A stretch of 64,000 nt of DNA from a virus. Numbering within the stretch: position 1 is the first letter of the stretch; the number at the start of each line of letters is the position of its first letter. The translations under genes and the position numbers were made by a program. Below the pieces are notes generated by a model, which saw only the letters and a list, made by a program, of their open reading frames with translations, was not told the DNA's origin and did no database searches. Positions 18,215 to 59,363 of the stretch are shown piece after piece. The stretch is from the IMG/VR virus record IMGVR_UViG_3300045988_060114; one strand, 5' to 3'.

Positions 18215-18266
18215 TCATCTAAATTTCCTAACTAGGAAAAAATATTTTCCCAACTAGAAAAGAAAA

Positions 18267-31000: not shown

Positions 31001-34000
31001 GTTGGGGTGGCTACGTTACTTCATCGGAAGAGATAGGAAAAAGCTATGCTAATCTTTCAAGAGATTATGGCAGCAGAAACATATATAAGGGCGATATTCC
31101 GTTGACCAAGTTGGAAAAGGCTGCTTTGAGTTCATTCATTGAGAACAACAAGAATCATGAAGGGACATTCAAGGAAGGTGTTGCTGGTTCTATCGAGCGA
31201 CAAAAGGCATTGATTGCTAAGCATCCGAACAATCCTCTTTCTAATAGTATCAAGAAGAGAATTGAAGTATTGGAGGGTGCTATGCCTAAACTGGATAGTA
31301 TCTCTTGGGATGATTTCGTTCCAAGTGGAAAGAACCTCTATGAGGTAGATATTCCTGAGGATAATGGCAGTAACTATCTGGAATGGGAGAAGAAACCATC
31401 TGATGAGGTTGCAACAAAGATAATTGAAGGTCTTTATGGCTTGGATGCTAAGACCCTTGATGATATGGCATCAAAGGATATTGTGTTCAGAACTCTGTTG
31501 TATGATTACATCAAGAATGCAGACAAGGAGCAGATGATTCCACTCCTTGTGAAGACTCATGCTCTAACTAGGGAAACTACCTATGACAATGGAAATGTTG
31601 AGGATGATATACGATTTGTGTACAATCGTTTATCTAGATGGATGGGCAGTCAAAAGGCTGCAAGCCAGTTCCTATCTTCTCTTGGTTTTACTGGCATCAA
31701 GTACCCTGCTGGAACAATCATGGGCGGTGTTGAAGGAGACGAAATCAACTATGTTATCTTCAAACCTGAGGATATGAAGATTACAGAACATACCAAGTTC
31801 TCCATCAAGACCTATCATGGCTCCCAAGCATCATTTGACAAGTTCGACCACTCCTTTATGGGTAGCGGTGAAGGTGCTCAGGCTTACGGCTGGGGTACTT
31901 ATGTGAGCGAAGTGGAAGGTATCGCCAAGGCTTATGCCAAGGCAAATGCAAAAAAGAATGCGCCTTCAAGACTGATGTATCAAGGTAAGCCTATGACGTA
32001 TAAAACTCCATCAATTATCTATCAAGTTGCCCTTGATATGGATAAGTTTAATATTTCCGCAAAAGAGGCTATATCAAAGATGATAGATGCTGATGAGAAG
32101 AAACTTGCATCCGTTGGCGACACCCCATTTGCGAAGATGAAAGCCAAACAAGTTCAAGATGAGTTGAAAGTTTTGAAAGATTTGAATCCTTCTGACTTCA
32201 AGATTAATGAGGACTATGATACTGTCGCACAGGATTTGATAGATACAAAGTCTGGTCTTGATTTATTGGAGGATGAGTTGAAAGATGCAAAATCCTATGT
32301 AGATTTGTACCAATCAAGACTTGATGAGGCTAAGGAAGAACTTTCAAAGGCAAAGGAAAGTGGCACTGGTTTAGGTGTTGATATGTATGAATCTGATGTT
32401 GAGTATTATAGCGAACAGGTTAAAAGATATAAGCAGAGTATAAAAACTAAGGAAAGTGACATCAAAGATGTAAAAACTAAGGTTGACGCTTTGCAGAAGA
32501 AGTTGGATTCCATGGAGAAACCACGCAACCTCTACTCTGTTGATATTCCTGATGATACTGGTCGCAACTACATCGGCTGGGATGAGCCTTTAGGTGCTGC
32601 TAAGATTATGCGTCTGCCAAAGGTATTCAAGGCTGATGGCTGGGAGTACAAGAAGGTTGGTATGTATGATACTTACAAGATTGATGGTAACGAACATGAG
32701 GTTTGGCTTGAACCAACTTTGACTACTGGCAAGGAACTTTATAGAGATTTGACGAATGCCCTAGGTAGCGACAAGGCTGCAAGCGAATTTCTCTCCAAGG
32801 CTGGCTTTGTCGGTGTGAAGGTTATCGCTCAGCGTAATACTGGCGGCAACAAGGAAGGCAAGATGAACTATGTTATCTTTGATGAGAACAATGCTCAGAT
32901 TACCAGTCATACCAAGTTCTCGTTGAAGAAAGATGGCTTGACTCCTGAGATAGCAAATACTCCTGTAAATATTGTTGATGCTGATGAGGAACATGGCTTT
33001 AAGAACTATGCTGAGGCAAGAGAATGGGCTAAGAAGAATATTGTTAGAACTTACAATGATGAAGAAACTGGTGGCAAGGGTGAGATTAATATCAGTAATA
33101 CTGCTGTTGGTAAGTATTTGTCTGAAAAGGCAGTTAAGAAGAGTGCAAACAAAGATGTACACATGAGCGTTTTGAAGGTCTTGCCTTCTATACTTCGTGA
33201 GAGTGTAGATGCTATTCAGCATGTTGACCGTAACAAGGTAGGAAATGAACGTAGTGAGGATTTTGGTGTCAATCCTGATGTTATGATACATCGTTGTTAT
33301 GGTGCGGTGAATATAGGCGATAAGGTCTATGGTGTAAAGATTACTTTGAAAGAGAATGTAAGAACACACGAAAAAACAAAGCTATATAGCTATGAAGCAA
33401 CAAAAATAGAGCTGCTGGACGGTCAAAGTGGAGACGTAGCTATGACCTCTCCCCGCAATTCCAACAACTCTATTACGGTTGCAAAGATAATAAAAGGTTT
33501 TGAAACTACCAAGAAAAATGGCGAAAAGTTTTCATTGAAGGATGAAAAAACTCTTGCAGGAGTGCATAACATTACTGAGGAGAAACTGAGAAAGGCTTTG
33601 AAGCTGGGTGGATTTGCCAATCCTTCTTTGGCTGTGATTGATACCAACAAGACTGCTCACGACAACTTTGGAGAGATTTCCTTCATCGCTCCTTCTGCCC
33701 TTTTGGATAAGCGTACTGGCAATACTGGCGGTACTTGGATAACTGATGCCTACACTCAACGTTATCCTTCCGTAGAGCGAGAAATGAGTGAAAAAGGGTA
33801 TCGGAAGTTTGAAGACTGGGTTGATAGCCTTGATTACCCAAGTGTAGCTAAGGCTGAGATTGAGAGACAGGCAAAGGATGCCCTGAGCGACAATAATGCT
33901 CCTGCTTGGGAGTTGATGTACTTGAAGGAAAAGGGTATTGATATTAAGGAGTATGATTCTAGAATTGATTATCGCTGGAAAGAGATTATCAGTGACCATC

Positions 34001-37000
34001 CTACTGCTGAGGATATTCTGAATAGTATGAAGACTGACCCTGAACTGAATAAAAAGGTTACAAGTCTGGCTAAGCATGCCATCATCCATCCTACTTGGGA
34101 AAAGGTTTCTTTGGAGGTAAGAAGAAAGATGTATAAGGAGACTGGCGTTAAGGCTAGCCCTATCAATCCACAAGTAAGAAAACAGACTAAGGAAATCTTT
34201 GAGCGTGACTATGCGCCAACCTTGCTTAACAAGGACGGCAGTCCAAGAAAAAAAGATGTGAAGAAGGTTGTTGGGGATATTGTGAAGGAGCACAACGATA
34301 CCAAGAAGTATAACTTCTATCTGTCTAAGGTGAAGGCTAGTAATTACGTCAACAAGAATGGTCTTTATGATGATTACATCAGATGGCAGGAGAACAAACT
34401 GGATGAGTTCGGAACGAAGAACCGTATCTTCCGTGGCTATACTAAGGATGGTTCCCGAAAGTATGTGCCTGAGACTCTTGAAAATGTTTCAAAGGCTATG
34501 AGGGAAGAAGCAGATGGGCAGACCAATGGAAGTGAATATACCTCGTTTGGTAGCTTTATCGCAAAGTTGGCTAGTCGTGTTGATTCTACAGACGAAATGC
34601 GTGCCAACAAGGATAAGTTGTCTTCTAATAAGGATAAGGAAGAGTTTTACGAGAAATGGAATGGGGTTTATTATGACCTTGCCAAGTTCTTGTATAATGA
34701 TGTGTTTTATGGCGAGCAGAGACTTCACGATATTGTATTGCAGTCTGACCCTAAGAAGTATGCCAAGAAAGAATATGGCATTACCCTTACTCCTACCTTT
34801 ATGAAGAAACTGGATGCCTTGAAGAATGCAGTACAGACAGAGTTGAAGAGTGCGTACTTTGAGACTAAGTACAACAGACCTCTACGCCTTAATGAGTTTG
34901 CTGCTGCTGTGGTTCCTGATAACTTGGGCGAAGATGTGCGCAAGGGTATAGAGAATGCTGGCTTACCAATGTATGACTACGACCCGAATAAGGAAGGTGA
35001 CCGCAGTCGTGCCTTCAATGAAGCTATAAATAGCAGCGACAATATCCGATTCTCTCTTGCTGGCGAGCGTGGTGCGGCTGCTGCTGACAAGGCAGAGGAG
35101 CGTACTGCTCGTATGGATAATCTCTCTGTGGCTCGCAAGATGGAAGAGGAGAAGAAGGATGCCAAGGCAATCAAGATGGCTACTGGTTGGGAGCGTGGTG
35201 CTGATGGCAAGTGGAGATACGAAATGCCTGATGCCAAGATAAAGGACACGATGGACGTAGGCGGTGGGCACATCGTTAAGCGTTACGAGGATGATATGCT
35301 CTGGAATGGTGGTAAACTATCTAATGTGATTGATGCACCTGAATTATTTAAGGCTTATCCCCAGTTGAAAGATGTGCGTATTGATACGGATGCCATTATG
35401 AACGATATGCCTTCAAATGGTGAATATAATTCAAAGACCAACACCATTACCATTCATGCTGATGAGTTGAAATATATGAATGGCATATTGAATCACGAGA
35501 TTCAGCACGTTATTCAGGATATTGAAGGCTTTGCCAAGGGCGGTAGTCCTAGATTGGTTAGAGGTGAGGTCAAGAAGAGGTTTGATGAGGTCACCAAACA
35601 GATTAAGCAGCTACGTGCAGAAGGTAAGGAAGATGAAGCAAAGACTCTGATTGAGAAGAACAGAGGTCTTTATAATGCTTATCAGAAGAATGATGATTTC
35701 AATAGTTACAAGTCTCTTGCTGGCGAGGTGGAAGCTCGTAACGTATCTGCCCGATTGAACATGACTCCTGAGGAGAGAAGAAAGACTCTCGCTGAATCTA
35801 CTGAGGACGTGGCTCGTAAAGACCAGATTTTCTTGGGCGTGGGCGATGTGTCCTTCTCTCTACGTGATATGGCTGACGGAAAGGAGAGTGGGGCGGCTGA
35901 TATGGCTGAGGATTTGAAGAGTCTGAACACTCCTGATGAGGTGGATGATGCTATCAAGACTGCCATTGATGATATGCCGAGCGGTTGGCAGATGGCTAAC
36001 AAGAAGATGATTCATATTGCTCAGGCTCTGGGCGAGAACCGCAAGGCAGAGATTTCTGGCGAGGAACCTAAGTTCTCCCTGAAGGCTGGCACTCTCATTA
36101 AGGCTGGAACCTACTTTAGTGGTGGCGGTCTTGTTGAGGAAGGCTTGAAGGGTATCATCGACCCAGTGGTGGCAGTGGAGTATGACGAGAAGATAAGCGG
36201 TGTATATCGCAACAACTTCGGGCAGCACATTGTTACTGCTGATGTTCGTGATGTAGACCCTAAGGAGTTGGTGAAGCAGATAGATGGTGAGGTGGAGTAC
36301 TTCCATGCCAGCCCAGTCTGCAAGAACTACTCTCAGGCAAAGAGTAACCACGCAGAGGTGGAACTTGACAAGGAGACTGCTGCTAGTACTGCCGAGTTTA
36401 TCAATGCCGTTAAGCCAAAGGTGGTGACTATTGAGAACGTGAAGGGGTATAAGGATTCGGAAGCGATGAAGACTATTACCGATGCTCTGGATGCCAACGG
36501 CTATACTTGGGATGCAGATGTGTATAACGCTGCTGACTATGGCGGCTACACAAACCGAGAGAGATTGATTGTCCGTGCGGTTCGTGATGGCAAACTTCCT
36601 GCCAAGCCAAAGAAGATGGCACGCAAGAGTGGATGGTATGAAGCTGTGGCTGATATTATCCCGACCCTGACCGAGAAGAAGAATGGCGTGGCTCCTTGGA
36701 TGGATATTCGCTTGAAGGCTGATGGCATTGACTGGAGAAACATTGACAAGCCATTATATGTGATGGGTAGTGCCTATGCTGACGGAAAGATTCCTCATGC
36801 CTTCGCTGACGAACTGCTGCCAACACTCCGAACCAAGAGCGGTGATGTAATTGTGATGCCTGATGGTAAGGTATATCGTGCCATGGGCAGAGTGCTCGCT
36901 AGAGTATCAGGAGTGAGCGATGATTACAAGATGCCATTCTCCGAGAATCTGAGCCATACCATCATCGGCAACGGAATACCTACCCAGTTGACCGAGCATG

Positions 37001-40000
37001 TTATTGCTCCTCTGCTTACTGGCTCTGACCCTAAGTTTAGCATCCGTACCTATCATGGTACTGGTGCTAGCTTCGACAAGTTCGATTTTAGCCACATGGG
37101 TGAAGGCGAAGGTTCACAAGCATTTGGCTGGGGTGGTTATGTTACTAACTCTAAGGAAATTGCTGAGGACTACACAAGACGTGCCAAAATGAGAAAAAAT
37201 AATGGCGGCTTTGAATTTGTGACAGATTTGTCTGACAGCAACAAAGATATGGTAAGACACTATATCTATAAATATAAAGATGTAGATAAGGGATTGGATG
37301 CTATGAGAAAAGACCTTTCTTCTGCTCTAGAAATGTTCCCTGATGATGATAATTTGAAGGAACTTAGCGATATTCTTGCAAAGAAGAATGAGGAAATAGC
37401 TGTTCCTGATGATATTGCTTATCTTTACGATGTGGATATTCCTGATGATAATGGAGATTATCTTGACTGGGAGAATAAATTGAAAAAATCTCATTTGAAC
37501 AAGGTAAATAAGGAGTTGGTTAGAATTGGCAAGGAACCTATTGAGGCCATTTATCCAAGTCGTGTTGATGGTAAGGTAAGAGGTCAAGACCTATACGATG
37601 AACTTTCCTCTATGCTTGGTTCTAAAGAAGCAGCTAGTAAGTTGTTAAGTGATGCTGGCTTTGTTGGTATTAAATACCCTGCTGGAACCATCTTTGGAGG
37701 TGCAAAGAAAGATGATTACAACTACGTGATATTCGATGAGAACAATGCCAATATCGTGGGTAATACCAGATTCTCCTTGCGCTATGACCAGTTTGAGCAT
37801 GACCTGAACCAGTGGAAGAAGGATAACAACCTGCCAAAGGATGCACAGCGACCAACCATCCCACAACGCAACGCTGGTGAGAGTGCCGTTGACTTCCTGA
37901 AGAGAGTGGACGAGTATCGCAAACAGATGGCTCTGTGGAAGACTGCTCCAACCTACGAGCAGCATCTTTTGAGTGATGATACTGCCCTTGGAGAGTTTAA
38001 CCGAGAGTTGCAGCGTGGTTCTGTACTCAAACGTATCGCCTTCCAAGATAGTATGCTGGCTATCCGCAAGGCTCAGGAAGCTATCATGAAGGAAGTGGGT
38101 GTTGACCGCCTGAATATGGCTGAGGATGCCTATACTGCCGAGAACAGAAGTCACGGCAAAGGAAAGAACGAGTTTGAGGAGTACAACAATGAGTTCTTGC
38201 AGCCATTGAGAAAGGCTTATCATCAGATGAAGAAGATACTGGGTGACAGCTATGATAATGTCCGTATCTACATGATGGCTAAGCATGGCTTGGAGCGTGA
38301 TGCTCAGATGGCTTTCAAGAAGTCACTGGATGCAGACTTTGAGGACGTGGCTCAGAGAAGTGCGGCATACAGGGCTTACAAGGGCGATATGAACCGTATT
38401 ACCAATGATAGCGATTTGGAGTTTGGCAGAGTGGATTTCAATACTTGGAGACAGAGAGATAACGCACTTAGAACGAAATACTCTCCTTCCTATATGGACT
38501 ATCGCTATGATGAGAATGGTATCGCCTACGATTACTCAGGCTTATCGGCTCTCTTCGGTGGCTCAGACTTTGAGGAAGCTGCCCACAAACTGGTAAGGGA
38601 TATTGAGAGTAGTCATGTAGCTGAGGTGCAAGACCTCTGGAATGCTACGAATGCGGCTACAAAGAAGATTCTCCGTGATGGCTATAAGGCTGGCATGATG
38701 AGCAAAGATACTTATCTGTATGTGCGTGATATGTATAGCCATTATATTCCTCTCCGTGGATGGGATGGCACTACTGCCGACCAAGTATGGGACTATGTAG
38801 GTGGTGGCAAGGGTGCGTTCAATCAGACATTGAAGACCGCACACGGACGTACCTCTATAGCTGATGACCCTATCGCTTACATCGAGAATATGGCAGAGAG
38901 TGGAATCCTGCTGAACAACAAGAACTGGGTGAAGCAACACCTGATGCTCTTGGCTCAGAATCATCCAACCTCTCTTCTCACCCTGAGCAAGGCTTGGTAC
39001 GTGAAGAGTACGGATGCCAACGGCAACGAGGAGTGGATTCCTGCTACACCTCAGATTACTTCTCAGATGAATAGCAATCAGGTGAAGGCTACCATTGATG
39101 CTTTCGAGCAGAAGATGGAGAATATGGCTCAGACTGGCGATGCTACCCAGCAGCGAGAAGGCTTGAACATAGCCTATCCTCAGACTCATAGCGAGGAGAG
39201 AGAACATGAGGTAAGAGTGATGAAGGATGGCGAGGAGTATGTTATCTATGTGAATGGTGACCCGCAGTTGGCTCAGGCGATGAACAATACTAGAGCACAC
39301 CGAGTGAGAGAGATTCAGAGCGGCAAACTGGATAGGGCTGCTGCTTGGTTGGGCAGAAAGATGGCTGCTGCCTATACCAGTCTTTCACCTCTCTTCATTC
39401 CTTCCAACTACTTCCGAGACCTGACCATGACGCTGGCATCTACCGCTATTCGTGAGGATGGCAGATACAACTATCTGCTAAGAAAGAATCTTGCTACCTC
39501 TTGGAATCTCGGTTTCATGCTGAGAGACTATCAGAACGGCAAGTTGAGAGATAAGGTAAACAACGGAAACGCTACTCCAAAGGAACAGATGTTCTATGAC
39601 TTCATGATGAATGGTGGCGAAACTGGCTTTGTCTCTTCGCTTGATGTGGAAGACTTGAAGAAGAAATTCAAGAATGACTTGAAGGATTTGGATAGATGGA
39701 AGGCGAACCCAGTAAAGGTAGGGCACACCATCATGGATAGTATCGAGTTCCTGAACAGAATGATTGAGGATAGTAACCGATTTGCGGTTTACATGACCTC
39801 TATTCAGTATGGACGTTCTATTGATGAGGCTGTGAATGATGCCAAGGACGTAACATTGAACTTCAACCGCAAGGGTACTGGCGAATATGGCTGGCAGATG
39901 ATTAGAAACCTCTATCTCTTCATCAACCCAGCAGTACAGAGTTTACAGACATTGGGTGCGCTTGCCAAACATCATCCGTTCAAGTTCACGGCTGTTACTG

Positions 40001-41361
40001 CATCGTGGTTGGCGAGTGGTGTGCTGGTTCCTATCGTCAACGCTGCCCTGATGAGTCTGTTGGGCGGTGATGATGATAAGGATAAGTACTGGCAGTTCAC
40101 CAAGTGGGATAGACGAAACAACCTGATTATGTGGGTTCCGTTTACTCATGAGTATGTGAAGATTCCGCTTGCTCAGGAGTTCCGTGCCTTCTATGGAGTA
40201 GGCGATATGATTGCATCCAAGATGATGGGTGGAGAGTTGGCTGAGGAAAGTTGGAGCCAGTATGCAGAAGACTTGCTCGGTCAGGTGGTGGATATGCTTC
40301 CGCTCGACCCTACTGGCTATGATGGCAATATTGCGGTCAGTCTGATGCCGAATGCTATTCGCCCAGTTTTTGAGTTGGCTTTCAATGTTGACTTCACTGG
40401 CAAGCCATTATTCAAGGAGACAGAGTATAACAAGTATGACCCGAACTTTACCAAGGCATACGTGGGCACTCCTGATTGGTTGGTACGTGCATCCAAGATG
40501 GTTAACTCAATCGGAAACGACTATCCTGATGTGCAGCAGAATAGCATTGATGCTTTCGGTGACCCAAGGTACAATCTGAATAACCCTGCCGTGGTTGACC
40601 ATGTATTGTCTTCTTACCTCGGTGGTGCTTACACCATGGGCAGTCAGGTGCTCGGTTTGCTTACCAAGTCACTCAATGACCGGAAGGAAATCAAGGTGGC
40701 TGATATTCCATTGGTAAGCAAGTTTGTCAGCAACCCTGATGATAGACCAGTCAGCAAAAAGCAGGGAGATGAGTTCTGGGATAAGAAGGAATACTACGAC
40801 CGTGCTTCCAACACAATTAGCAAGTTGAAGAAACAAGCTAAGATTGATGGAGATTATTCCCAGCTTGAACGTTTCTATGGCTCTGAGGAATACAAGACTT
40901 ACAAGTTGTATGAGAAAGATGTAAAAGATTACAAGGAGGCAAGAAAAAAGGAACGTGCTGAGGAGAGCGGTGATGAGTACAGACCACACCAACTTAATGC
41001 TGAGGACATCTATAATAATCATGCTACCCCTATGGATGAGTTTGAGGATATGAAACTGAAACAACTCTTTGAAAAGTTAAACTCATTTAAGACTAGATAT
41101 GATGCTATTGTAGATAATGCCCCAAATGAGAGCGATGGCTACTACAACACCAACAAGACAGCCATTGATGCCATTGACGAGATTTCCCTTGATAAGCAGG
41201 AGATTTCCGAATTGAAGAAAGGTTTCTTGGATGATGGTAAGGATGCCTACAACGCTGAGGACATGAAGCAGATTCGTGACCTGAGAAAGAAGATTCTTGC
41301 CGTGCTGGAGAAGGCTAACAAGGTGGTTGTGGCTAACCAGAAGGCGAAGACTGATAAGTAA
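25066..41361 (+). CDS. giant multidomain polyvalent protein (5,431 aa)
   Basis: Single uninterrupted 16,296-nt ORF. HEMTH at 29833-29847 and HEIQH at 35494-35508. C5-MTase motifs at 36115-37020. Three paralogous YHG[ST] modules. Hydrophobic helices near 39979-40068. Followed by a strong terminator. Confidence 0.9.
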   Translation: MAERPLYTLYKNLKAQNYDVPDDYNKFESALTREGKGGADNRHAIYENLKAQNFDVPDTYERFYSALFEPRSKTSSRAKGGSVPLSAADRARFNARTAEILSSANNAVRQAKRNIQTKLGQAKKFDGGRVTQRLKNPLQNQNVQKNEFNYNATTGKTGTYTTSDGVEFDNEYDATQYQNKLDEQGQQYINAVNAGEIPSALDVRDQNGNYDLQENIGKNGTYLTEEGAQKQFDKKLADAYARKKEIEAAIAEDNRQHGNPLLSYGASIGSSNGRNAEQSDYRNKLATSLSLVTQQIGALEAVKQYPTSSWGEDALKALDNTAFTAKTWDFGLTDFATMGQMERIKTKMDNNIPLSGSDKMLLKSKLGADAAAALEDEKMGNIYRWTKIAGQSLPFMADFFLTGGYGGITKGISRGALKIAAKSGMGKVSAAILKNTGIVAGDVIGSYAMAGTEQALKTGADIMQRHLGNLYQDEKGDYKFGTFDENGNLLHEGGESMGTALYKGLTSAMVENYTEKLFGHNYGIKKGAVNFMEKHGMNASAEFFKNIGKSGWYTNSKKWMEKFGINGFAEEVMEEEIGIPLHALLDGDSKVSDLLDARQQLDIIGGMAISVGSMYAMGAGSRPVKGVYNRAQYYRFRHKLNVADSDAQNLIGDNWADIKDKIDNATNEQMGSVLAGILRQRDTMTKEQINAAVNYGVNLMKMRGYNIAKTSEMNAREITNEPTTPEEQHQTDIDNAYSEGHDADDADKHDIQIQQEDQMKTLAAALGISEQQLSVMSDEELESLTGKDDKLDQAIYDYQLSSARYQGVVDDAQDKVDLAAHQAEQRVDMYTDQSRGSVRNATIKASGGLEDYGVYIISGNIATHDDGTIDVSNSDDMILYYDPTTNSVEHADALMFAELGEELPADDVKAQAVADAKEVAIKEVAGIIDGTVDVGSQFLVTDADGTEHTYEVLADYGDGTAAISIDGNVVENPYSLADLQQMKDLEDKKRLETAKAQREQIEKERAEQQNQETEQTQPSFDFNQILNDNGNVVIVDVLDKDGNTKYPDSRLFLIRDTGAKAKVVELKSDGTIVPHAVSKKNVSIITSMSLDEYKQAMAESSMIEDNSGENRGEIEVETPTIEGETAAPAEETAAPESAETPATEQTPAAPSITLEDGTIVPMLEDGNPDFTKLTAAQTAELYDSQFGEDADSIVSGYVSDAKKALDKASNMTVKGKTFVEQKAAKDAKEKAIADAQAAYDSAIAIRDAYNERQLAKVEDTAEGRKELIEKARRKFARLKSAVKNDAEAVAQLYKETVGSLLHRLYDGTGIDVTDTIPLTAEEYVASNLGAHSLNYEGTETSKGVKQETGLSREDFAKTQLLAADGKGTTIDNLVHSLWENRPSNLDSLDTQNIRNALLSIITSGFKASEARNYIENLRIAQAENILEEQKKAADNAAFAEEKTGEENSDEENDEENEKINEQTNENINAPEVPEDATDDTPLGAQRDESDLPFSAKENGKQQTTAERAADVEKNKVDDMKVVDNIVGEKTRKAFERLAKMMGAAIQWQYSDKLGNGWIQETKDADGNVHRTIFITLDSSITEGAQFIFGHEMTHQIKNLNPAAYNELTQLVLDTYGSDAFDKAVGETMQRYSDAGFSGRARDYYAEEVVADAVGEMIRDLNLAHTLAMKMSHPLLAAIHEILQKIKLAFFGTEYSDVTKNIIRSIEQAYVKTANGEVTNSETGEDVSFSLRQKPEPKKKGIGYKVFVLKDGKLYPPMVANPNGAATPVGVWLDADAAPIAGESKTGRPQVKQGGKGTQGGSGKLAYRPGWHLGVVPYAIQFNRKDAEGNKTLFPKNFVFAEVEYAADVDYQEEARQEGINPSGKYQHSLAGLKHLPTDGFYMYRTNPNPETDPWVITGAMKVNRILTRAEQAELVKNAGREPQQIQEGDIVTDDVVNSINQEIADAPKFSLKVYHGSGADFTEFDFDHMGEGAGSQVFGWGGYVTSSEEIGKSYANLSRDYGSRNIYKGDIPLTKLEKAALSSFIENNKNHEGTFKEGVAGSIERQKALIAKHPNNPLSNSIKKRIEVLEGAMPKLDSISWDDFVPSGKNLYEVDIPEDNGSNYLEWEKKPSDEVATKIIEGLYGLDAKTLDDMASKDIVFRTLLYDYIKNADKEQMIPLLVKTHALTRETTYDNGNVEDDIRFVYNRLSRWMGSQKAASQFLSSLGFTGIKYPAGTIMGGVEGDEINYVIFKPEDMKITEHTKFSIKTYHGSQASFDKFDHSFMGSGEGAQAYGWGTYVSEVEGIAKAYAKANAKKNAPSRLMYQGKPMTYKTPSIIYQVALDMDKFNISAKEAISKMIDADEKKLASVGDTPFAKMKAKQVQDELKVLKDLNPSDFKINEDYDTVAQDLIDTKSGLDLLEDELKDAKSYVDLYQSRLDEAKEELSKAKESGTGLGVDMYESDVEYYSEQVKRYKQSIKTKESDIKDVKTKVDALQKKLDSMEKPRNLYSVDIPDDTGRNYIGWDEPLGAAKIMRLPKVFKADGWEYKKVGMYDTYKIDGNEHEVWLEPTLTTGKELYRDLTNALGSDKAASEFLSKAGFVGVKVIAQRNTGGNKEGKMNYVIFDENNAQITSHTKFSLKKDGLTPEIANTPVNIVDADEEHGFKNYAEAREWAKKNIVRTYNDEETGGKGEINISNTAVGKYLSEKAVKKSANKDVHMSVLKVLPSILRESVDAIQHVDRNKVGNERSEDFGVNPDVMIHRCYGAVNIGDKVYGVKITLKENVRTHEKTKLYSYEATKIELLDGQSGDVAMTSPRNSNNSITVAKIIKGFETTKKNGEKFSLKDEKTLAGVHNITEEKLRKALKLGGFANPSLAVIDTNKTAHDNFGEISFIAPSALLDKRTGNTGGTWITDAYTQRYPSVEREMSEKGYRKFEDWVDSLDYPSVAKAEIERQAKDALSDNNAPAWELMYLKEKGIDIKEYDSRIDYRWKEIISDHPTAEDILNSMKTDPELNKKVTSLAKHAIIHPTWEKVSLEVRRKMYKETGVKASPINPQVRKQTKEIFERDYAPTLLNKDGSPRKKDVKKVVGDIVKEHNDTKKYNFYLSKVKASNYVNKNGLYDDYIRWQENKLDEFGTKNRIFRGYTKDGSRKYVPETLENVSKAMREEADGQTNGSEYTSFGSFIAKLASRVDSTDEMRANKDKLSSNKDKEEFYEKWNGVYYDLAKFLYNDVFYGEQRLHDIVLQSDPKKYAKKEYGITLTPTFMKKLDALKNAVQTELKSAYFETKYNRPLRLNEFAAAVVPDNLGEDVRKGIENAGLPMYDYDPNKEGDRSRAFNEAINSSDNIRFSLAGERGAAAADKAEERTARMDNLSVARKMEEEKKDAKAIKMATGWERGADGKWRYEMPDAKIKDTMDVGGGHIVKRYEDDMLWNGGKLSNVIDAPELFKAYPQLKDVRIDTDAIMNDMPSNGEYNSKTNTITIHADELKYMNGILNHEIQHVIQDIEGFAKGGSPRLVRGEVKKRFDEVTKQIKQLRAEGKEDEAKTLIEKNRGLYNAYQKNDDFNSYKSLAGEVEARNVSARLNMTPEERRKTLAESTEDVARKDQIFLGVGDVSFSLRDMADGKESGAADMAEDLKSLNTPDEVDDAIKTAIDDMPSGWQMANKKMIHIAQALGENRKAEISGEEPKFSLKAGTLIKAGTYFSGGGLVEEGLKGIIDPVVAVEYDEKISGVYRNNFGQHIVTADVRDVDPKELVKQIDGEVEYFHASPVCKNYSQAKSNHAEVELDKETAASTAEFINAVKPKVVTIENVKGYKDSEAMKTITDALDANGYTWDADVYNAADYGGYTNRERLIVRAVRDGKLPAKPKKMARKSGWYEAVADIIPTLTEKKNGVAPWMDIRLKADGIDWRNIDKPLYVMGSAYADGKIPHAFADELLPTLRTKSGDVIVMPDGKVYRAMGRVLARVSGVSDDYKMPFSENLSHTIIGNGIPTQLTEHVIAPLLTGSDPKFSIRTYHGTGASFDKFDFSHMGEGEGSQAFGWGGYVTNSKEIAEDYTRRAKMRKNNGGFEFVTDLSDSNKDMVRHYIYKYKDVDKGLDAMRKDLSSALEMFPDDDNLKELSDILAKKNEEIAVPDDIAYLYDVDIPDDNGDYLDWENKLKKSHLNKVNKELVRIGKEPIEAIYPSRVDGKVRGQDLYDELSSMLGSKEAASKLLSDAGFVGIKYPAGTIFGGAKKDDYNYVIFDENNANIVGNTRFSLRYDQFEHDLNQWKKDNNLPKDAQRPTIPQRNAGESAVDFLKRVDEYRKQMALWKTAPTYEQHLLSDDTALGEFNRELQRGSVLKRIAFQDSMLAIRKAQEAIMKEVGVDRLNMAEDAYTAENRSHGKGKNEFEEYNNEFLQPLRKAYHQMKKILGDSYDNVRIYMMAKHGLERDAQMAFKKSLDADFEDVAQRSAAYRAYKGDMNRITNDSDLEFGRVDFNTWRQRDNALRTKYSPSYMDYRYDENGIAYDYSGLSALFGGSDFEEAAHKLVRDIESSHVAEVQDLWNATNAATKKILRDGYKAGMMSKDTYLYVRDMYSHYIPLRGWDGTTADQVWDYVGGGKGAFNQTLKTAHGRTSIADDPIAYIENMAESGILLNNKNWVKQHLMLLAQNHPTSLLTLSKAWYVKSTDANGNEEWIPATPQITSQMNSNQVKATIDAFEQKMENMAQTGDATQQREGLNIAYPQTHSEEREHEVRVMKDGEEYVIYVNGDPQLAQAMNNTRAHRVREIQSGKLDRAAAWLGRKMAAAYTSLSPLFIPSNYFRDLTMTLASTAIREDGRYNYLLRKNLATSWNLGFMLRDYQNGKLRDKVNNGNATPKEQMFYDFMMNGGETGFVSSLDVEDLKKKFKNDLKDLDRWKANPVKVGHTIMDSIEFLNRMIEDSNRFAVYMTSIQYGRSIDEAVNDAKDVTLNFNRKGTGEYGWQMIRNLYLFINPAVQSLQTLGALAKHHPFKFTAVTASWLASGVLVPIVNAALMSLLGGDDDKDKYWQFTKWDRRNNLIMWVPFTHEYVKIPLAQEFRAFYGVGDMIASKMMGGELAEESWSQYAEDLLGQVVDMLPLDPTGYDGNIAVSLMPNAIRPVFELAFNVDFTGKPLFKETEYNKYDPNFTKAYVGTPDWLVRASKMVNSIGNDYPDVQQNSIDAFGDPRYNLNNPAVVDHVLSSYLGGAYTMGSQVLGLLTKSLNDRKEIKVADIPLVSKFVSNPDDRPVSKKQGDEFWDKKEYYDRASNTISKLKKQAKIDGDYSQLERFYGSEEYKTYKLYEKDVKDYKEARKKERAEESGDEYRPHQLNAEDIYNNHATPMDEFEDMKLKQLFEKLNSFKTRYDAIVDNAPNESDGYYNTNKTAIDAIDEISLDKQEISELKKGFLDDGKDAYNAEDMKQIRDLRKKILAVLEKANKVVVANQKAKTDK
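29554..30246 (+). other. domain of giant ORF: zincin-like metallopeptidase module 1
   Basis: ITEGAQFIFGHEMTHQIKNL (HExxH), bracketed by FSAK (29542) and FSLR (30247). Confidence 0.6.
30907..31794 (+). other. domain of giant ORF: HGS module copy 1 (weak ART-like signature)
   Basis: KFSLKVYHGSGADFTEFDFDHMGEGAGSQVFGWGGYV ... LYEVDIPEDNGSNYLEWE ... GFTGIKYPAG ... INYVIF. Confidence 0.5.
31795..32913 (+). other. domain of giant ORF: HGS module copy 2 (with a coiled-coil insertion)
   Basis: KFSIKTYHGSQASFDKFDHSFMGSGEGAQAYGWGTYV ... LYSVDIPDDTGRNYIGWD ... GFVGVKV ... MNYVIF. Confidence 0.5.
35062..35853 (+). other. domain of giant ORF: zincin-like module 2
   Basis: ATGWERGADGKWRYEMPD ... NGILNHEIQHVIQDIEGFAKGG ... 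LAGEVEARNV, bracketed by FSLA (35050) and FSLR (35854). Confidence 0.55.
36085..37032 (+). other. domain of giant ORF: C5-cytosine DNA methyltransferase
   Basis: YFSGGGL (motif I), HASPVCKNYS (motif IV variant, P-V-C), TIENVKG (VI), TNRERLIV (VIII), IIGNGIP (X). Confidence 0.75.
37033..37767 (+). other. domain of giant ORF: HGT module copy 3
   Basis: KFSIRTYHGTGASFDKFDFSHMGEGEGSQAFGWGGYV ... LYDVDIPDDNGDYLDWE ... GFVGIKYPAG ... YNYVIF. Confidence 0.5.
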
Positions 41362-53803: not shown

Positions 53804-55984
53804 TTATATGATGGTTGCTGCCGAAACAGAAACCTTTCTTCTCATTACTCTTGCCTGATATTGAATCATCTTTGGCATTTCCATTTCATTGAAACAGATG
53901 TGAAGTCCGATGGCTCTGGTCATGAGCAAATCATCGTGCTTTCCGTCGATGGCTCCGTATGCTCCGTTCTTCTTACGCTCGTAGGTAAGGAACTCATTCA
54001 GGCATCGTTGGTCACGCTCAACGTATAGATGCTCTCTGACTACCTGAACCAAAACAGAGATAACCATTGGCTTGGTTGCCACATTGGTATGGAATCCGTA
54101 CTTGCGTGGAAGACCTTCCTTGATGTCAGCTTCGCTCTGCTTGCGTGCATAGAGATTATCGTACTCATCCTTTATTTGATTCAGGATGAACTCAGACTGG
54201 TCACCACCTTCCAAGATGTGCTCCTTGTCTTTCGTCTCCAAGGTGTTGGATTCAATCACCAATAGGGCATTGTCGTAGTACTTGGCTATCTGAGCTGCCT
54301 TCCATGCCAGCAAGTCCATATCTATGTGCCCGTACCATTGGGCTACCACGTATGGTTTGCCGCCTTCTATCATCCAATATCGGTCGAAGACACAGATAAC
54401 AGACCAGTCTGCCTTACTACCTCTACCGCCAATATCCACGACAACCAGATAGCGGTTTGTGACCTTGCAATCGTCAAAGTACTCTGGCTTGCTCCATATC
54501 CACAACTGCCCAGTCTTGTCTTCTGTGAATCGAACATTCTGTAGGCACTTCTTGCCCTTATATCCGTCTCCATACACATCACCGATGAACTTAGGTGCTC
54601 GGCAACCTTTCTTGAACTGGTCAACCTTCTCTTCTGCAAATACCTTGGCTCCTGAGTGCTTAAAGGCCTCTACTGGGTCAGAAGGGAATCCGCTAGCCAT
54701 ATCGCCATGGTCAGTGAACTTCTTGCGCTCCATGATATACCAGTTGAGAGCTTCCAAAGGTGCTCCCATCTGCCACAACTTCCAAAGGTAGGTAACTGGC
54801 TCCTCACGATTAGACATCGTGTTGGTGTTGTTGCGGTTGTCGTACAACCATTTTGCGAACTCCTCTTTCTGTTTCTTACTCTCGAAGTCAAGATGGTATA
54901 GGTCGTAAATCTCGAACCAAGGTACGAAGAACGGCTCAAATACCGATTCTCCTGCTTCTGCTGCCAACCACTCCTGATGGAAGAAGTTTCCAGTACCATT
55001 TGCGGTTGATTCATATACTATCATCGTGTATGGTCTGTAGAGTACACCATTGGTCGCATTCTGTACAACTTCCTCAGGAGACTTGCCTTCCGTCTTCTCC
55101 CACAATCCCACCTCGGAACAATGGATAAGGTTGTAGTCTTCACCATTGGCAGAAGTTGGTTTCTGCATGGAACCCACCTTGATTTTGCAGAATCTCTGAG
55201 GAACCTTCTTGACGTTACCTGATGTTCCGAATCCTACAAACTTAGGCTCGTTCTCGGTATATGCTTCTCCCATTTCATGCAGGAACTTGACTGGGAACAT
55301 CTTCAATGCTTCATCAAACATTCCTCGGATGGTTTCTGCGGTGTCCTTGACCTGAGCCACGATGAGCGAATTGAGTCCCTTCTGCCACATGAGTTGCAGC
55401 CAAAGGAAGTACATCTGAATAACCGTTGAACCTCCCCATTGTCGGGCTTTCAGCAGGATGAGACGGATAGGGCGATTCTTCTTTCTACGCTCCTCCAGCC
55501 ACCTGAGCAATCTACGCTGCGGTCTTCTGAGCACAAAGCGGAAGGGGAGACCTCCACCTTTCGGCTTGATATAAATGAATACGGCAAAGAAAAAGAATGG
55601 GTCATGTTTCATTCTGATGCGAGTAAACTGCTCCACCAGTTGTTCCATTTCCTCCTCCTCGTTGTACGGCTCGTCTATATCTTTGTGCAGTTCCTCGATT
55701 ACTGCCTTGCAGCTACCCAATTCAATGAGCATCTTCACGAGCGGAATCTTCTTCATTGATATAGGAAGGTTCTGTTTCTGAATCGGGTAATCGGGCAGGA
55801 AGAGCTGGAACCGCTTATCTCCACAACCTTCACCCTTGACGGGATTGAAGGGCGTGTTGATTTCCTTGATGCGTTTCTCGTTCTCCTGAAGGATGGATTT
55901 ATAGTGCTTGGCTAGTGCATCGGTTACTGGCGGCTTGGTGGCGGTTACTTGTCTTGGCATAGCGGTGCGTTTAGATAACCCCAC
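53804..55984 (-). CDS. terL: terminase large subunit
   Basis: LLKARQWGGSTVIQMY (Walker-A-like ATPase motif) and VVVDIGGRGSKADWSVICVFD (RNase-H-like nuclease). Confidence 0.85.
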   Translation of the reverse strand: MGLSKRTAMPRQVTATKPPVTDALAKHYKSILQENEKRIKEINTPFNPVKGEGCGDKRFQLFLPDYPIQKQNLPISMKKIPLVKMLIELGSCKAVIEELHKDIDEPYNEEEEMEQLVEQFTRIRMKHDPFFFFAVFIYIKPKGGGLPFRFVLRRPQRRLLRWLEERRKKNRPIRLILLKARQWGGSTVIQMYFLWLQLMWQKGLNSLIVAQVKDTAETIRGMFDEALKMFPVKFLHEMGEAYTENEPKFVGFGTSGNVKKVPQRFCKIKVGSMQKPTSANGEDYNLIHCSEVGLWEKTEGKSPEEVVQNATNGVLYRPYTMIVYESTANGTGNFFHQEWLAAEAGESVFEPFFVPWFEIYDLYHLDFESKKQKEEFAKWLYDNRNNTNTMSNREEPVTYLWKLWQMGAPLEALNWYIMERKKFTDHGDMASGFPSDPVEAFKHSGAKVFAEEKVDQFKKGCRAPKFIGDVYGDGYKGKKCLQNVRFTEDKTGQLWIWSKPEYFDDCKVTNRYLVVVDIGGRGSKADWSVICVFDRYWMIEGGKPYVVAQWYGHIDMDLLAWKAAQIAKYYDNALLVIESNTLETKDKEHILEGGDQSEFILNQIKDEYDNLYARKQSEADIKEGLPRKYGFHTNVATKPMVISVLVQVVREHLYVERDQRCLNEFLTYERKKNGAYGAIDGKHDDLLMTRAIGLHICFNEMEMPKMIQYQARVMRRKVSVSAATII

Positions 55985-56424
55985 AACAGACCAAGTACAT
56001 AGCAGTAGATGTGGACTCCAACTGCCATGCAGGGAATGAAGATTCCGATACTGATATAGATTAAGATAATTGTATTGTACCTTATCTTATTATTAACGTA
56101 AGGGGCAATAAAGCCCATGTAGGCATAGATAAAACCGCTGAGACCAATGATTGGTACGGAGGATTGGTAAGGATAGCTGATAGCGATGAGATAGAATGCG
56201 ACCATGTGACCGATGCCACAAGGTATGGCTCGATAACACTGATGGAAAACATATAAGTTGATGGCGGCATGGAAGACGTTCTGATGAAAGAACGGATAAC
56301 TGATGCGCTGCCAAAGAGTGCAGCCATCTGACAAGCCCATGCCGTCATAGCCCATAAAAGTGATACACATTATTATAATGTACCCTGCATAAAGCGCAAT
56401 CTTCTCTTTCGCTCCTCGTAGCAT
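55945..56424 (-). CDS. rhomboid-family intramembrane serine protease (minimal core; alternative start 56370)
   Basis: FFHQNVFHAAINL (H..(x)..HxxxN), IIGLSGFIYAYMGF (GxSGxxxxxxG) and GVHIYCYVLGLLWG (H...GxxxG). These align with E. coli GlpG HILFN, GLSGVVYALMGY and HIAGLAVGLAMA. Confidence 0.75.
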   Translation of the reverse strand: MLRGAKEKIALYAGYIIIMCITFMGYDGMGLSDGCTLWQRISYPFFHQNVFHAAINLYVFHQCYRAIPCGIGHMVAFYLIAISYPYQSSVPIIGLSGFIYAYMGFIAPYVNNKIRYNTIILIYISIGIFIPCMAVGVHIYCYVLGLLWGYLNAPLCQDK

Positions 56425-56828
56425 CTTTTCTTCTCCTCCTTTCTCACCCTATAAAGTATGACGTGCATGGTTTGCGGAGTAAGATAGAAGCTGGGTGCTG
56501 GCTCGTAGCATACACGTTTGATAATATCCATCTTGGATAAGTGTGGATATTGCTTTCTATAATTCTTGAATCTTCTGAAAATCTCCTGATACATTGCCCT
56601 TCTGGTTGGTATCATATAATCAATGGATTTTCCCAACAATAAGTCTAATATGACTATATAAGCACGGTCTTCTGAGACCCAAAATCTACAGCTCGGAGAC
56701 TGGGATAGTTTTTCCTCAATCTCTGAGAGTGTTATATTGTCTCCTGTCGTAAGTATCTCACGATAAGCCCTCAATATATCAGCATCACGTTCTTCTTTAA
56801 AATCACATCGTGAATCCTTATATTTCAT
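56373..56828 (-). CDS. hypothetical protein, first gene of the packaging operon (possible small terminase; start trimmed to MKYKDSR)
   Basis: The ATG at 56828 lies 11 nt downstream of a minus-strand TATATTTG box (56840-56847). Function inferred from position only. Confidence 0.5.
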   Translation of the reverse strand: MKYKDSRCDFKEERDADILRAYREILTTGDNITLSEIEEKLSQSPSCRFWVSEDRAYIVILDLLLGKSIDYMIPTRRAMYQEIFRRFKNYRKQYPHLSKMDIIKRVCYEPAPSFYLTPQTMHVILYRVRKEEKKRCYEERKRRLRFMQGTL

Positions 56829-56839
56829 ATCTGACCCTG

Positions 56840-56847
56840 CAAATATA
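56840..56847 (-). promoter_or_regulatory. -7 box TATATTTG for the packaging operon
   Basis: Reverse complement of caaatata. Confidence 0.45.
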
Positions 56848-56886
56848 CAAAAAATAATTGAATTAGTCGTATTAGAATAACGATAA

Positions 56887-56929
56887 TTAACGGATAAAGT
56901 AGAAATTAGCCGAAAAAGCATTAATTTTG
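56887..56929 (+). promoter_or_regulatory. phage composite promoter P4: TTAACGGATAAA-N23-TAATTTTG
   Basis: 12-mer at 56887-56898 and -7 box at 56922-56929, with a 23-nt gap. Confidence 0.65.
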
Positions 56930-56960
56930 GGCATTGATTTATAAATTAATACATATATAT

Positions 56961-57776
56961 ATGCCAGATAATACAAATATTGAACAGAATGCTGGTGCTG
57001 CCAAGCAGCAGGAAACAAAGACCAAGAGAGACTTGGCTTTGGAGCGTTTGAAGACCCGACACCCCGACACAGAGTATGCGGATGATGAAGCTATGTATGG
57101 CGCAATCAATGATGATTATGATGCAGACCAGAAGGCTTTGCAGGGTTATAAGGATAATGAGAAGGCGATGGGTGACTGGTTGGGCAGTGACCCTGAGGCA
57201 GCTACCTTCCTACAAGCAATGAAGGCAGGTAAGAGTCCTTACGCTGAGTTGATTCGTACACATGGCGAGGATGCCATTGACTACTACTCTGACCCTGACA
57301 ATGCGGATGAGATTGCATCGGCTCAGTCGGAGTTCTTGCAGAATGCTGCCAACGGCAAGAAATTGCAGGAGGAGTATGACAAGAACATGCCATCCAGCTA
57401 TGAAGTATTCGACAAGTTGGAGGAGAAATATGGCGAGGAAGCGGTGAATGAAGCCATCGACCAATGCTTTCAGACTATGCGTAATGTGGTGACTGGCAAG
57501 TTTACAGAGGAAATGATTACTGCTTTCATCAAGGCTAAGAACCATGATACCGATGTGGCTGATGCAGCCCATGAAGGTGAGGTTCGTGGCAAGAACAGCA
57601 AGCACGTCAAGAACTTGCAGCTACGCAAGAAGGGTGATGGTACTGCCGACCTTGATTCTGCCAATGCGGAGACCAAACAGACAGATAACCAGCCAAACCT
57701 TGGTGCGCTTGGTAGGGCATCACGTAGGGGAAATATCTGGGAGCGTGGCAATGAGAAGAGAACACGCATTCGATAA
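56961..57776 (+). CDS. acidic alpha-helical protein, scaffold-like (start trimmed to MPDNTNIEQ)
   Basis: The track start 56934 is only 4 nt from the -7 box, whereas the ATG at 56961 is 31 nt downstream as at the other promoters. Lies upstream of the capsid gene. Confidence 0.55.
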   Translation: MPDNTNIEQNAGAAKQQETKTKRDLALERLKTRHPDTEYADDEAMYGAINDDYDADQKALQGYKDNEKAMGDWLGSDPEAATFLQAMKAGKSPYAELIRTHGEDAIDYYSDPDNADEIASAQSEFLQNAANGKKLQEEYDKNMPSSYEVFDKLEEKYGEEAVNEAIDQCFQTMRNVVTGKFTEEMITAFIKAKNHDTDVADAAHEGEVRGKNSKHVKNLQLRKKGDGTADLDSANAETKQTDNQPNLGALGRASRRGNIWERGNEKRTRIR

Positions 57777-57821: not shown

Positions 57822-59363
57822 ATGAAGAAAAGTAACAAATTTAATCGGCTGCTTTCTATCTTTATGATGGTTATGGCAGTTATTTTTGGAGTGAATGGTC
57901 AGGTTATCATGGCTGAGGCGGCTCTGCCTGATGGCGGTAGTACCGAGAGTGGTCACGCTGCGGAGGCTGGTGGTGCTACTGCTGCCGATGATGCTGGCAA
58001 TGGCGGTGCTGCTCGTCAGGATGATGGTATTGCTACCGAAACCAAGGGTCGTGAGCATTATAACGAGAATGGCACGGAGTTCTATGAGAACGACATCAAC
58101 GATAAGATTACCAAGATTCGTCCGATGGCTACGCCAGTTGACCAGATTTCACGCTATGCTACAACTAAGTCTGCTGGCTCGTTTGTAGTTGAGTATTGGA
58201 GTATTGGTACACGTCCTATCAAGACTACCGTCAAGGAGACTACATTGGAAAGTACTGGTACATCTATGGTATTGAAGGTAGAAGACCCTGAAATGTTTAC
58301 GCTGGATGATACCATCCGAGTGGTAGGTGTTAAGGCGATTACCAACTACAAGAATCAGGCTTATGCAGACCTTACCGATGAACCTACTCCTGATTTGGAA
58401 CTTTGTGTGTGCGGTAAGGATAATGAGGGTTATCCTATTGTGTTTGCGGTAAATGGCAAATTGGTTAAGAAGCAGCCTATTGGTATTCCAGCCTTACAGA
58501 AGGGTCAGAAACTTATCCGTATGGCTAAGAGTTGCGGTGAGTTGGACGTACAGACGGGTCGTTTCAACAACCTTCCTGATTCTGATGTTCAGTACTGCCA
58601 GAACTTCATGATTCAGGTTGAGGAGAGCACCTTCAATAAGATTGCTGCTAAGCGAGTAGATTGGGACTTCTCTGACATCGAGGAGGATAGTATCTACGAT
58701 ATGCGTCTTGCTATGGAGGGTACTTATCTCTTCGGTGATATGGCTTGTATCAAGCATACTACCAAAAACAACTCTACTCAGTGGTTTACAAAGGGTATCT
58801 GGTGGATGGCTGGTAAGGACATTGAGGTAGGTCATGTTGCTACTGCTGACGATATAAAGAAGGGCTATGGTAAGAATGAGCGAGTGATTACAGACTTGGA
58901 GTTGGTTGACATTTCCAAGGACTTGTTTGTTGGTACTGGTATCGGCAACAAGCGCAAGGTGATTATCGCTGGCTCTGCCTTTGTGAGTGCATTCAGTAAG
59001 ATTGACTCTGACAAGTTCCGCTTGAAGGACACCGTAGAGGTTTGGGACTTGAAGTTCAAGAGTTGGGAGACCGACTTCGGTGAGGTGCTGATGATTCACT
59101 CTGAGTTGTTTGACCTCTTCGATATGAGTGACTGCGGCTTTGCCCTTGACCCTGAGTTCTTGGTTAAGCGAGTACACTTGTCTTGGACACGTAACGTGCT
59201 CGACTTGAAGAAGGCTGGCATCCGTAACACCGATGCAGTAGTTATTCAGGAGGTAGCTTGTCTGTACTTGAAGTACCCTAAGGCACACGCTCGTATGCGC
59301 CTTGCTGCGGTTCCTGCAACAGAAAGTGCAACTGATACAGAAGAGACCAAGGCTGCTGCCTAA
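57822..59363 (+). CDS. putative major capsid protein (alternative start 57909)
   Basis: Large ORF between the scaffold-like gene and a strong terminator. The hydrophobic N-terminus of the long form is atypical. Confidence 0.55.
   Translation: MKKSNKFNRLLSIFMMVMAVIFGVNGQVIMAEAALPDGGSTESGHAAEAGGATAADDAGNGGAARQDDGIATETKGREHYNENGTEFYENDINDKITKIRPMATPVDQISRYATTKSAGSFVVEYWSIGTRPIKTTVKETTLESTGTSMVLKVEDPEMFTLDDTIRVVGVKAITNYKNQAYADLTDEPTPDLELCVCGKDNEGYPIVFAVNGKLVKKQPIGIPALQKGQKLIRMAKSCGELDVQTGRFNNLPDSDVQYCQNFMIQVEESTFNKIAAKRVDWDFSDIEEDSIYDMRLAMEGTYLFGDMACIKHTTKNNSTQWFTKGIWWMAGKDIEVGHVATADDIKKGYGKNERVITDLELVDISKDLFVGTGIGNKRKVIIAGSAFVSAFSKIDSDKFRLKDTVEVWDLKFKSWETDFGEVLMIHSELFDLFDMSDCGFALDPEFLVKRVHLSWTRNVLDLKKAGIRNTDAVVIQEVACLYLKYPKAHARMRLAAVPATESATDTEETKAAA

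Follow-up and report, generated by a model that had tools for sequence, protein, structure and literature searches.

The virus sequence IMGVR_UViG_3300045988_060114 of the IMG/VR database, a stretch of 64,000 nucleotides referred to below as the window, carries in its DNA-packaging operon, between the first gene and the gene of the large terminase (terL), a short open reading frame (ORF) that almost certainly encodes a genuine rhomboid-family intramembrane serine protease, catalytically competent-looking by its sequence. An earlier examination of the letters, the sequence-only reading, had drawn attention to this ORF, and the observation of a rhomboid ORF within the packaging operon was confirmed. 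Comparison of related loci showed that a widespread lineage of temperate gut phages of Bacteroidales (Prevotella/Bacteroides), about 60–75 kb in size, keeps it as a strictly conserved core gene. We propose, at a probability of roughly 45%, that the protease could remove the N-terminal membrane segments of virion-protein precursors, releasing them for head assembly. The gene and its key codons are as follows.

55945..56424, minus strand: mini-rhomboid gene, 159 aa from an ATG start, with six transmembrane (TM) helices and an N-in/C-in topology predicted
Key codons of this gene: H47; H52 at 56271-56269; N56 at 56259-56257; S96 at 56139-56137; H138 at 56013-56011; G145

The three rhomboid signatures that had been read in this 159-aa ORF, whose coordinates are exact, were all found in the right order: FFH47QNVFH52AAIN56 in TM2, G94-L-S96-G97-FIYAYMGF in TM4, and H138-IYCYVLG145-LLWG149 in TM6. 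Searched alone against the Pfam rhomboid profile PF01694 (MEROPS S54), the window protein scored 19.2 bits (E = 0.0015) over profile positions 3-133 of 143, short of the 22.6 bits required for gathering; membership therefore rests on the family rather than on the single sequence. The profile was matched by 19 of 26 close homologues and, at E < 1e-3, by 68 of 87 diverse homologues (best E = 2.1e-11). Profiles built from the family matched solely GlpG rhomboid chains in the PDB, with E-values of 1.6e-7 and 1.9e-8; the latter belongs to Haemophilus influenzae GlpG, and Escherichia coli GlpG was found at about 4e-6. The HxxxxHxxxN motif, GLSG, and the catalytic His of GlpG stand in register with those of the phage family in these alignments. 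The rhomboid identity is thus borne out by significant Pfam and PDB matches at the family level, while the Pfam check of the single sequence stays below the threshold. A word-indexed search returned 65 clusters of homologues with 41–99% identity, and an exhaustive search returned 665 representative clusters (at 50% identity), 281 of them at E < 1e-10, with nearly all matches listed being 150–185 aa long. No PHROGs family matches the window rhomboid or any of the 87 members.

An alignment of these 87 members, which are 22–86% identical to the window protein, contains only six invariant columns, H47, H52, N56, G94, S96, and H138, and judging from their positions these are the rhomboid catalytic and oxyanion residues. 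Since they are invariant over divergent members in which most other positions vary, the protein looks like a working enzyme. Further conservation was observed for R40 (76 of 87), an aromatic residue at position 100 (85 of 87), G145 (82 of 87), and position 97, which is G or A in 81 of 87 members. In addition to these motifs, the phage family shares with the GlpG proteins of E. coli and H. influenzae the predicted six-TM fold, in which TM2 carries HxxxxHxxxN, TM4 G-x-S-G, and TM6 the catalytic His, the aromatic residue four positions past the Ser, and the predicted N-in/C-in orientation with a periplasm-facing active site. Unlike GlpG, it is phage-encoded and reduced: its 159 aa compare with crystallised chains of 179–196 aa, making it about 20–35 residues shorter, the L1 and interhelix loops are shorter, and extramembrane domains, the cytoplasmic N-terminal one included, are missing. 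The 'WR' motif of L1 is only half retained, its Arg being the conserved R40, whereas the Trp two residues earlier occurs in only 12 of 87 members (the window protein reads W38-Q-R40). The packing motif of TM6 likewise has a register of its own, H138-x6-G145-x3 with a small residue (G, A, or S) at position 149 in 78 of 87 members, instead of AHxxGxxxG. Two variants of the family, P0107 (334 aa) and P0109 (231 aa; L101:451-1146), carry tandem peptide repeats in the periplasmic L1 loop, e.g., about 16 copies of GISTADTT.

The sequence-only reading had also allowed for a 142-aa form from an alternative start. The next in-frame ATG is codon 19 and would yield 141 aa, and a start there was rejected: this Met is unconserved and TM1 would be deleted, while Met1 and the TM1 pattern are conserved. 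The conservation of M1, as opposed to that of the codon-19 Met, supports the 159-aa form. The ratio of nonsynonymous to synonymous substitutions (dN/dS) calculated against IMG/VR relatives was 0.08–0.23, likewise in the portion overlapping no other gene, which indicates that the ORF is a real gene under purifying selection. A chance ORF, or an unexpressed degenerate remnant, might be suspected from the single-sequence Pfam score below the gathering threshold and from the absence of a PHROG family. This explanation is effectively refuted by the dN/dS values together with full-length conservation over the 665 representative clusters and a predicted fold of high confidence.

That fold was obtained with AlphaFold2 from the 87-sequence alignment, with a predicted local distance difference test score (pLDDT) of 94.3 and a predicted template-modelling score (pTM) of 0.89. 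Its six helices span residues 3-24, 50-66, 71-82, 96-109, 113-129, and 135-152, and a further helix lies in L1 at 37-45; hydropathy likewise gives six membrane helices. A Foldseek search of the PDB with this model returned GlpG or iRhom structures at all top 20 ranks (probability 1.0, template-modelling scores of about 0.6), followed by Der1 at rank 21 with a probability of 0.35. The structure comparison thus retrieved, at these ranks, rhomboid-superfamily structures only. A first model from a shallow alignment had a pLDDT of 61 and was uninformative in Foldseek beyond a weak top match to GlpG; it was replaced. Over the predicted loops, Lys plus Arg amounted to 8.3 inside versus 1.8 outside, with the inside value higher in all 87 members. 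Because of this charge bias, the rhomboid N-in/C-in topology was assigned, which puts S96 and H138 close to where their helices end on the periplasmic side. Had the topology placed the Ser and the His on opposite sides of the membrane, it would have spoken against a protease; the prediction has both facing the periplasm in every one of the 87 members. Altogether, the model predicts a stripped-down six-TM core of about 160 aa, in which the Ser96/His138 dyad (in TM4 and TM6) and the oxyanion residues His52/Asn56 (in TM2) would sit close to where these helices reach the periplasm.

The genes around the rhomboid are arranged in two divergent operons.

56373..56828, minus strand: 'up', the first gene of the operon, 151 aa from ATG 56828, phrog_27246 (function not assigned)
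53804..55960, minus strand: terL, 718 aa from ATG 55960, phrog_2
56829..56960, no strand: divergent intergenic region, 132 bp, with TAnnTTTG at 56847 (minus) and 56922 (plus)
56961..57776, plus strand: gene of an acidic scaffold-like protein (271 aa, phrog_22323) that opens the divergent head operon
57822..59363, plus strand: major capsid protein (MCP), 513 aa, SU10_MCP / phrog_26635

The placement of the rhomboid between the first gene of the operon and terL, as originally described, agrees with the identity of the neighbours, since the 'up' protein matches phrog_27246 end to end, terL belongs to phrog_2, and the reading frames overlap. The overlap of 'up' and the rhomboid is 52 nt (56373..56424), with the rhomboid in the -1 frame relative to 'up'. 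An overlap with terL exists as well, although its reported length of 40 nt holds only for a GTG start at 55984; the ATG at 55960 gives 16 nt. The latter was taken as the more likely start because independent gene calls in relatives and the ORF survey show the 16-nt arrangement. Across the surveyed loci, overlap or near-abutment of the rhomboid with both neighbours is the rule, and an unusually long 'up'/rhomboid overlap of 37–52 nt with the rhomboid in the -1 frame occurs in all but one lineage. In this phage lineage, terL has an N-terminal extension of about 140 residues ahead of the part matched by known terL profiles: in the window the phrog_2 match and the ATPase/nuclease region begin at about residue 140, and tblastn matches to other phages at about 163.

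The divergent region contains one Bacteroidetes-type -7 box (TAnnTTTG) per direction, that at 56847 standing before 'up' and that at 56922 before the gene of the scaffold-like protein. No minus-strand copy was found between 56847 and 55244, that is, from the start of the first gene to well inside terL. The motif is common, about one per 1.7 kb per strand, hence its distribution lends modest support to a single operon. The rhomboid would then be transcribed from the promoter ahead of the 151-aa first gene, and the anatomy of the overlaps suggests that its translation is probably coupled to that of 'up' and terL. From this transcription with 'up' and the coupled translation, it would follow that the rhomboid is a late protein made alongside the head and packaging proteins. 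By its position the 'up' gene could encode the small terminase; no Pfam match of its product passed the threshold, and a profile search of the PDB returned nothing better than E = 1.

In one database protein, P0066 (292 aa), 'up' and the rhomboid are fused in frame, which may reflect a sequencing error, a genuine fusion, or frameshifting; a canonical slippery heptamer for a programmed -1 frameshift between the two genes was not seen on inspection by eye. Such a fusion, the tight position of the rhomboid between 'up' and terL, and the appearance at Foldseek rank 21 of Der1, a rhomboid-superfamily pseudoprotease, would also suit a non-proteolytic function, in which the fold serves, like iRhom and Derlin, as a membrane anchor, a membrane-thinning chaperone, or a dock for the procapsid or terminase, and catalysis is dispensable. 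We regard this as very improbable in view of the invariance of all catalytic and oxyanion residues in the 87 divergent members.

We surveyed 93 loci, including three cultured Bacteroides phages and separately sampled distant contigs (nine plus L100), down to 26% identity. The gene order [MCP <- scaffold-like] | [151-aa gene -> rhomboid -> terL -> small basic protein] was present in every surveyed locus with enough flank, so that the survey for rhomboid genes beside terL, which had been suggested as a check, found the arrangement conserved wherever it could be seen. Most of the loci also carry a P22-type portal and a polyvalent protein of 4000–6000 aa nearby; phages of the lineage combine such a portal with a capsid protein of the SU10 type and a polyvalent protein of 5000–6000 aa. 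At the locus of the repeat-bearing variant P0109 (L101), terL does not follow within 450 nt downstream of the rhomboid, and a zeta-toxin-like gene is found there instead.

Close relatives of the rhomboid occur on 207 IMG/VR contigs of about 35–68 kb, integrated in the chromosome of Segatella copri HDE04 (NZ_CP152346.1, 1,472,166-1,478,642), and on contigs of Prevotella metagenome-assembled genomes (MAGs). The window is a nearly complete genome of a Bacteroidales phage, which on the basis of these relatives is most likely a temperate phage of Prevotella/Segatella. Two relatives were binned in Oscillospiraceae or Clostridia MAGs, probably by mis-binning. More distant members, with 26–33% identity, are gp8 of BS-TP4, gp50 of BKO1-TP3, and gp59 of BF1-TP2, the three cultured Bacteroides phages; a megablast search of INPHARED with the 3.2-kb locus gave no match, and these isolates were found at the protein level only. 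About 86 ORFs were considered in the window, and 16 of them, the rhomboid among them, have BLAST homologues in BS-TP4. The shared set comprises 'up', the rhomboid, terL, the small basic protein, the scaffold-like protein, MCP, two head-module proteins, the portal, the giant polyvalent protein, its two upstream genes, and four others, and most of them besides the rhomboid are head or packaging genes. Since it is among the 16 genes common to the window and BS-TP4, the rhomboid belongs to the morphogenetic core and is not an accessory 'moron' gene. Within that core it evolves fastest, with 26–33% identity between sub-lineages versus 47–59% for terL and 43–61% for MCP.

This faster evolution would suit the tracking of variable host targets, and one could hypothesise that the protease, expressed late or from the prophage, cuts a host inner-membrane protein, such as a receptor or transport component, a Sec/Tat component, or a membrane-anchored defence sensor or effector, to the benefit of replication or of the exclusion of competing phages. 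The predicted periplasm-facing active site is as in cellular rhomboids acting on host membrane proteins, and in other phages, e.g., DLP3 and DLP5 of Stenotrophomonas, rhomboid genes are found in the company of moron-like or host-modifying genes. The 'rhomboid membrane protein' of DLP3 and DLP5 is likewise phage-encoded and of similar size (175 aa in DLP3). Unlike the gene studied here, the DLP3 gene is not beside terL; it lies, amid unrelated, mostly hypothetical genes, about 1 kb upstream of those for a PIG-L deacetylase, WcaG, and WecE, which are cell-envelope sugar-modification genes. A host-directed function seems rather unlikely for the window lineage, where the rhomboid is a strictly syntenic core gene with overlapping frames in the head/packaging operon and not part of a variable accessory region, and where it is kept everywhere although the hosts span Bacteroides and Segatella/Prevotella. 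Moreover, the gene has no promoter-type motif of its own, which makes lysogenic expression unlikely.

If the rhomboid acts on phage proteins, its candidate substrates are few. All window ORFs were scanned for hydrophobic segments and then filtered for conservation in BS-TP4; the TM-containing ORFs that remained were only the rhomboid, MCP, the giant protein (with one internal hydrophobic stretch), and a 222-aa glycine-zipper protein. Two of them are considered as candidates, each with an N-terminal hydrophobic segment.

57822..57920, plus strand: MCP N-terminal segment, codons 1-33, MKKSNKFNR-LLSIFMMVMAVIFGVNGQVIMAEA, followed by an acidic low-complexity linker
23194..23862, plus strand: glycine-zipper protein, 222 aa, with an N-terminal hydrophobic segment and then a basic cluster (MLGALIGAGLGLASSIAGGVANRKARRK), predicted N-out/C-in

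In all lineages MCP opens with a basic N-terminus; about 14 hydrophobic residues come after it and lead into G-[AV]-x-x-G-V-[ML]-M-A-[DEQN]-A, usually with (N)LPDAG next; a variable acidic linker rich in Gly, Ala, and Thr and a conserved N-arm follow. Between BS-TP4 and a high-GC relative, dN for this segment was 0.15 versus a dS of 1.9, which argues that it is translated and under selection at the protein level. By sequence, the first 30 or so residues of MCP resemble a Sec signal peptide or a signal anchor with an A-x-A site; for the capsid protein of a tailed phage, such a start is very unusual. The head module yielded no match to a prohead protease family. MCP is therefore listed here as a candidate substrate of the rhomboid.

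The glycine-zipper protein is a second candidate. Its gene lies just upstream of a 389-aa gene and of the 5431-aa giant gene, and the N-terminus MG[LI]IGSxxGxxGxIxGG with the basic cluster is present in all four phages compared (the window, BS-TP4, BKO1-TP3, and BF1-TP2); the homologues in BKO1-TP3 and BF1-TP2 are gp57 (L098:538-1017) and gp70 (L099:529-1077). It is probably an internal or ejection protein. Its apparent N-out/C-in orientation and helix-destabilising small residues are as in classical rhomboid substrates, and it fits the canonical substrate rules better than MCP does. A dedicated rhomboid of Providencia stuartii, AarA, processes the N-terminus of the small N-out/C-in protein TatA at A-x-A|A, taking off a short extension and thereby activating it. 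The glycine-zipper protein, as a candidate, shares the TatA-type orientation and composition, with a Gly/Ala/Ser-rich helix; unlike that system, the phage rhomboid belongs to a head/packaging operon and not to a quorum-sensing or Tat context, and AarA has seven TM helices. In the BS-TP4 record (PQ571277.1) the terminal direct repeat lies inside the glycine-zipper gene, which is thereby split, and only its 79-aa C-terminal part is annotated (gp1).

Several observations weigh against the processing of these two proteins by the rhomboid. The hydrophobic segment of MCP has a basic N-flank and an acidic C-flank, and these charges imply an N-in/C-out orientation that would place the capsid domain in the periplasm and is opposite in polarity to that of type I/III substrates. 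The polarity is not prohibitive, since Rho-1 also cleaves the type II protein Star (PMC2950126); the problem of the capsid-domain location stays. The A-x-A motif is just as much a textbook site for signal peptidase I. Near residue 29-30 of MCP there is also a conserved internal Met, at which one gene caller starts the gene and which could give a cytoplasmic, signal-less isoform needing no processing. The rhomboid and the MCP hydrophobic segment co-occur in every member examined; because they are always together, phyletic variation is uninformative. The single outgroup examined, MW202692, is the nearest terL relative, though too distant to carry much weight; it lacks a rhomboid, and none of its head proteins starts with a hydrophobic segment. 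Outside the lineage, BLAST detected no relatives of MCP in INPHARED. As for the glycine-zipper protein, it may never enter the membrane of the producing cell.

With these points considered, release of virion proteins from the membrane remains our preferred proposal. The rhomboid would act as a morphogenetic protease in the inner membrane of the producing cell, where it would cut away the membrane segment at the N-terminus of one or several precursors of phage virion proteins, and the clipped precursors would leave the membrane and join the assembling head. Both elements have counterparts elsewhere: cleavage by PARL releases PINK1 to the cytosol, and T4 proheads, which form on the membrane, come free of it after proteolysis. 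The proteases HK97 gp4, T4 gp21, and lambda gpC offer a functional analogy only: they too are encoded in head modules, and through them the capsid protein loses an N-terminal segment, either ahead of packaging or in the course of it. They are soluble, act inside the prohead, and have herpesvirus-protease-like or ClpP/S49 folds, unlike a membrane-embedded rhomboid, which could act only on membrane-inserted precursors. A prohead-type role for the rhomboid is suggested by its being a core gene of the head module, by the removable-looking segment of MCP, and by the lack of a detected classical protease in the module. A fuller version, which we consider rather unlikely, would have the head built from membrane-tethered precursors of the HK97-fold MCP and of the glycine-zipper protein, with the minimal rhomboid, co-translated with the terminase, as the maturation and release protease that cuts within the membrane. 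If true, it would be the first case of an intramembrane protease taking part in the morphogenesis of a tailed phage, and it would provide a natural pair of rhomboid and substrate encoded side by side.

Among the roles considered in the sequence-only reading, which also included cleavage of host membrane proteins and the timing of lysis, we infer that the processing of phage proteins is favoured over the others. For lysis timing, the rhomboid would cut a holin, antiholin, or spanin, or free a membrane-tethered endolysin, and thereby tie lysis to the completion of packaging. Its late expression with terL, as deduced from the operon structure, would be compatible with this, and several small TM proteins are encoded in these phages. 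However, no homologue of any of the window's small TM proteins was detected in BS-TP4, in contrast to the conserved rhomboid, so that they cannot be its conserved partner; the endolysin cluster of BS-TP4 (38.0-41.3 kb) is about 16 kb from its rhomboid (22.4 kb); and no holin or endolysin family was found among the ten TM-region ORFs scanned. A link to lysis is accordingly quite improbable. In another part of the window, 16433..18668 on the plus strand, a repressor-like gene (phrog_4/2328) is followed by small proteins of the multi-TM, N-terminal-TM, signal-peptide, and C-terminal-TM types. These four small membrane proteins (16.4-18.7 kb) have no PHROG match and no homologue in BS-TP4, and their genes may be expressed during lysogeny, for exclusion or as morons, or may form a lysis cassette.

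To our knowledge, rhomboids are ubiquitous, and very few bacterial ones have a known physiological substrate. The phage family is unusually small (about 160 aa, below any crystallised core), abundant, and fixed near few candidate substrates, and its cultured carriers BS-TP4, BKO1-TP3, and BF1-TP2 make the question of prokaryotic rhomboid substrates directly testable. A membrane protease as a core head/packaging gene and a signal-peptide-like capsid start together point to a membrane-linked step in head assembly; apart from the portal initiation of T4, we know of no such step described in HK97-fold phages.

Judged by its sequences, the family appears to be a minimal, phage-specific rhomboid clade fixed in the head/packaging operon. 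Annotations of phage rhomboids as such pre-exist: besides DLP3/DLP5, they include 'MAG TPA: GlpG-like protein [Caudoviricetes]', names given by JGI, and those of BS-TP4 gp8 and BF1-TP2 gp59. The paper describing the Bacteroides isolates BS-TP4, BKO1-TP3, and BF1-TP2 makes no mention of the rhomboid gene, and full-text literature searches found no study on phage rhomboid function. The family also exposes gaps in annotation: it is absent from PHROGs, many members fall under the Pfam threshold, and the adjacent terL carries a wrong label in GenBank. In the entries for the three cultured relatives (PQ571277.1, PQ571269.1, and PQ571263.1), terL is named 'tail spike protein', and BKO1-TP3 gp50 is named 'glycoside hydrolase'; secondary, structure-based notes in the records of the isolates say Terminase and Rhomboid.

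The giant protein downstream of the glycine-zipper gene is encoded by a single 5431-aa ORF at 25066..41361 on the plus strand. Its homologues in relatives, called 'polyvalent protein', have 3900–6000 aa and contain helicase, MuF_C, ddrB-ParB, InPase, Kinase-PolyVal, and LPD38 domains, and that of BKO1-TP3 is labelled 'DarB-like antirestriction'.

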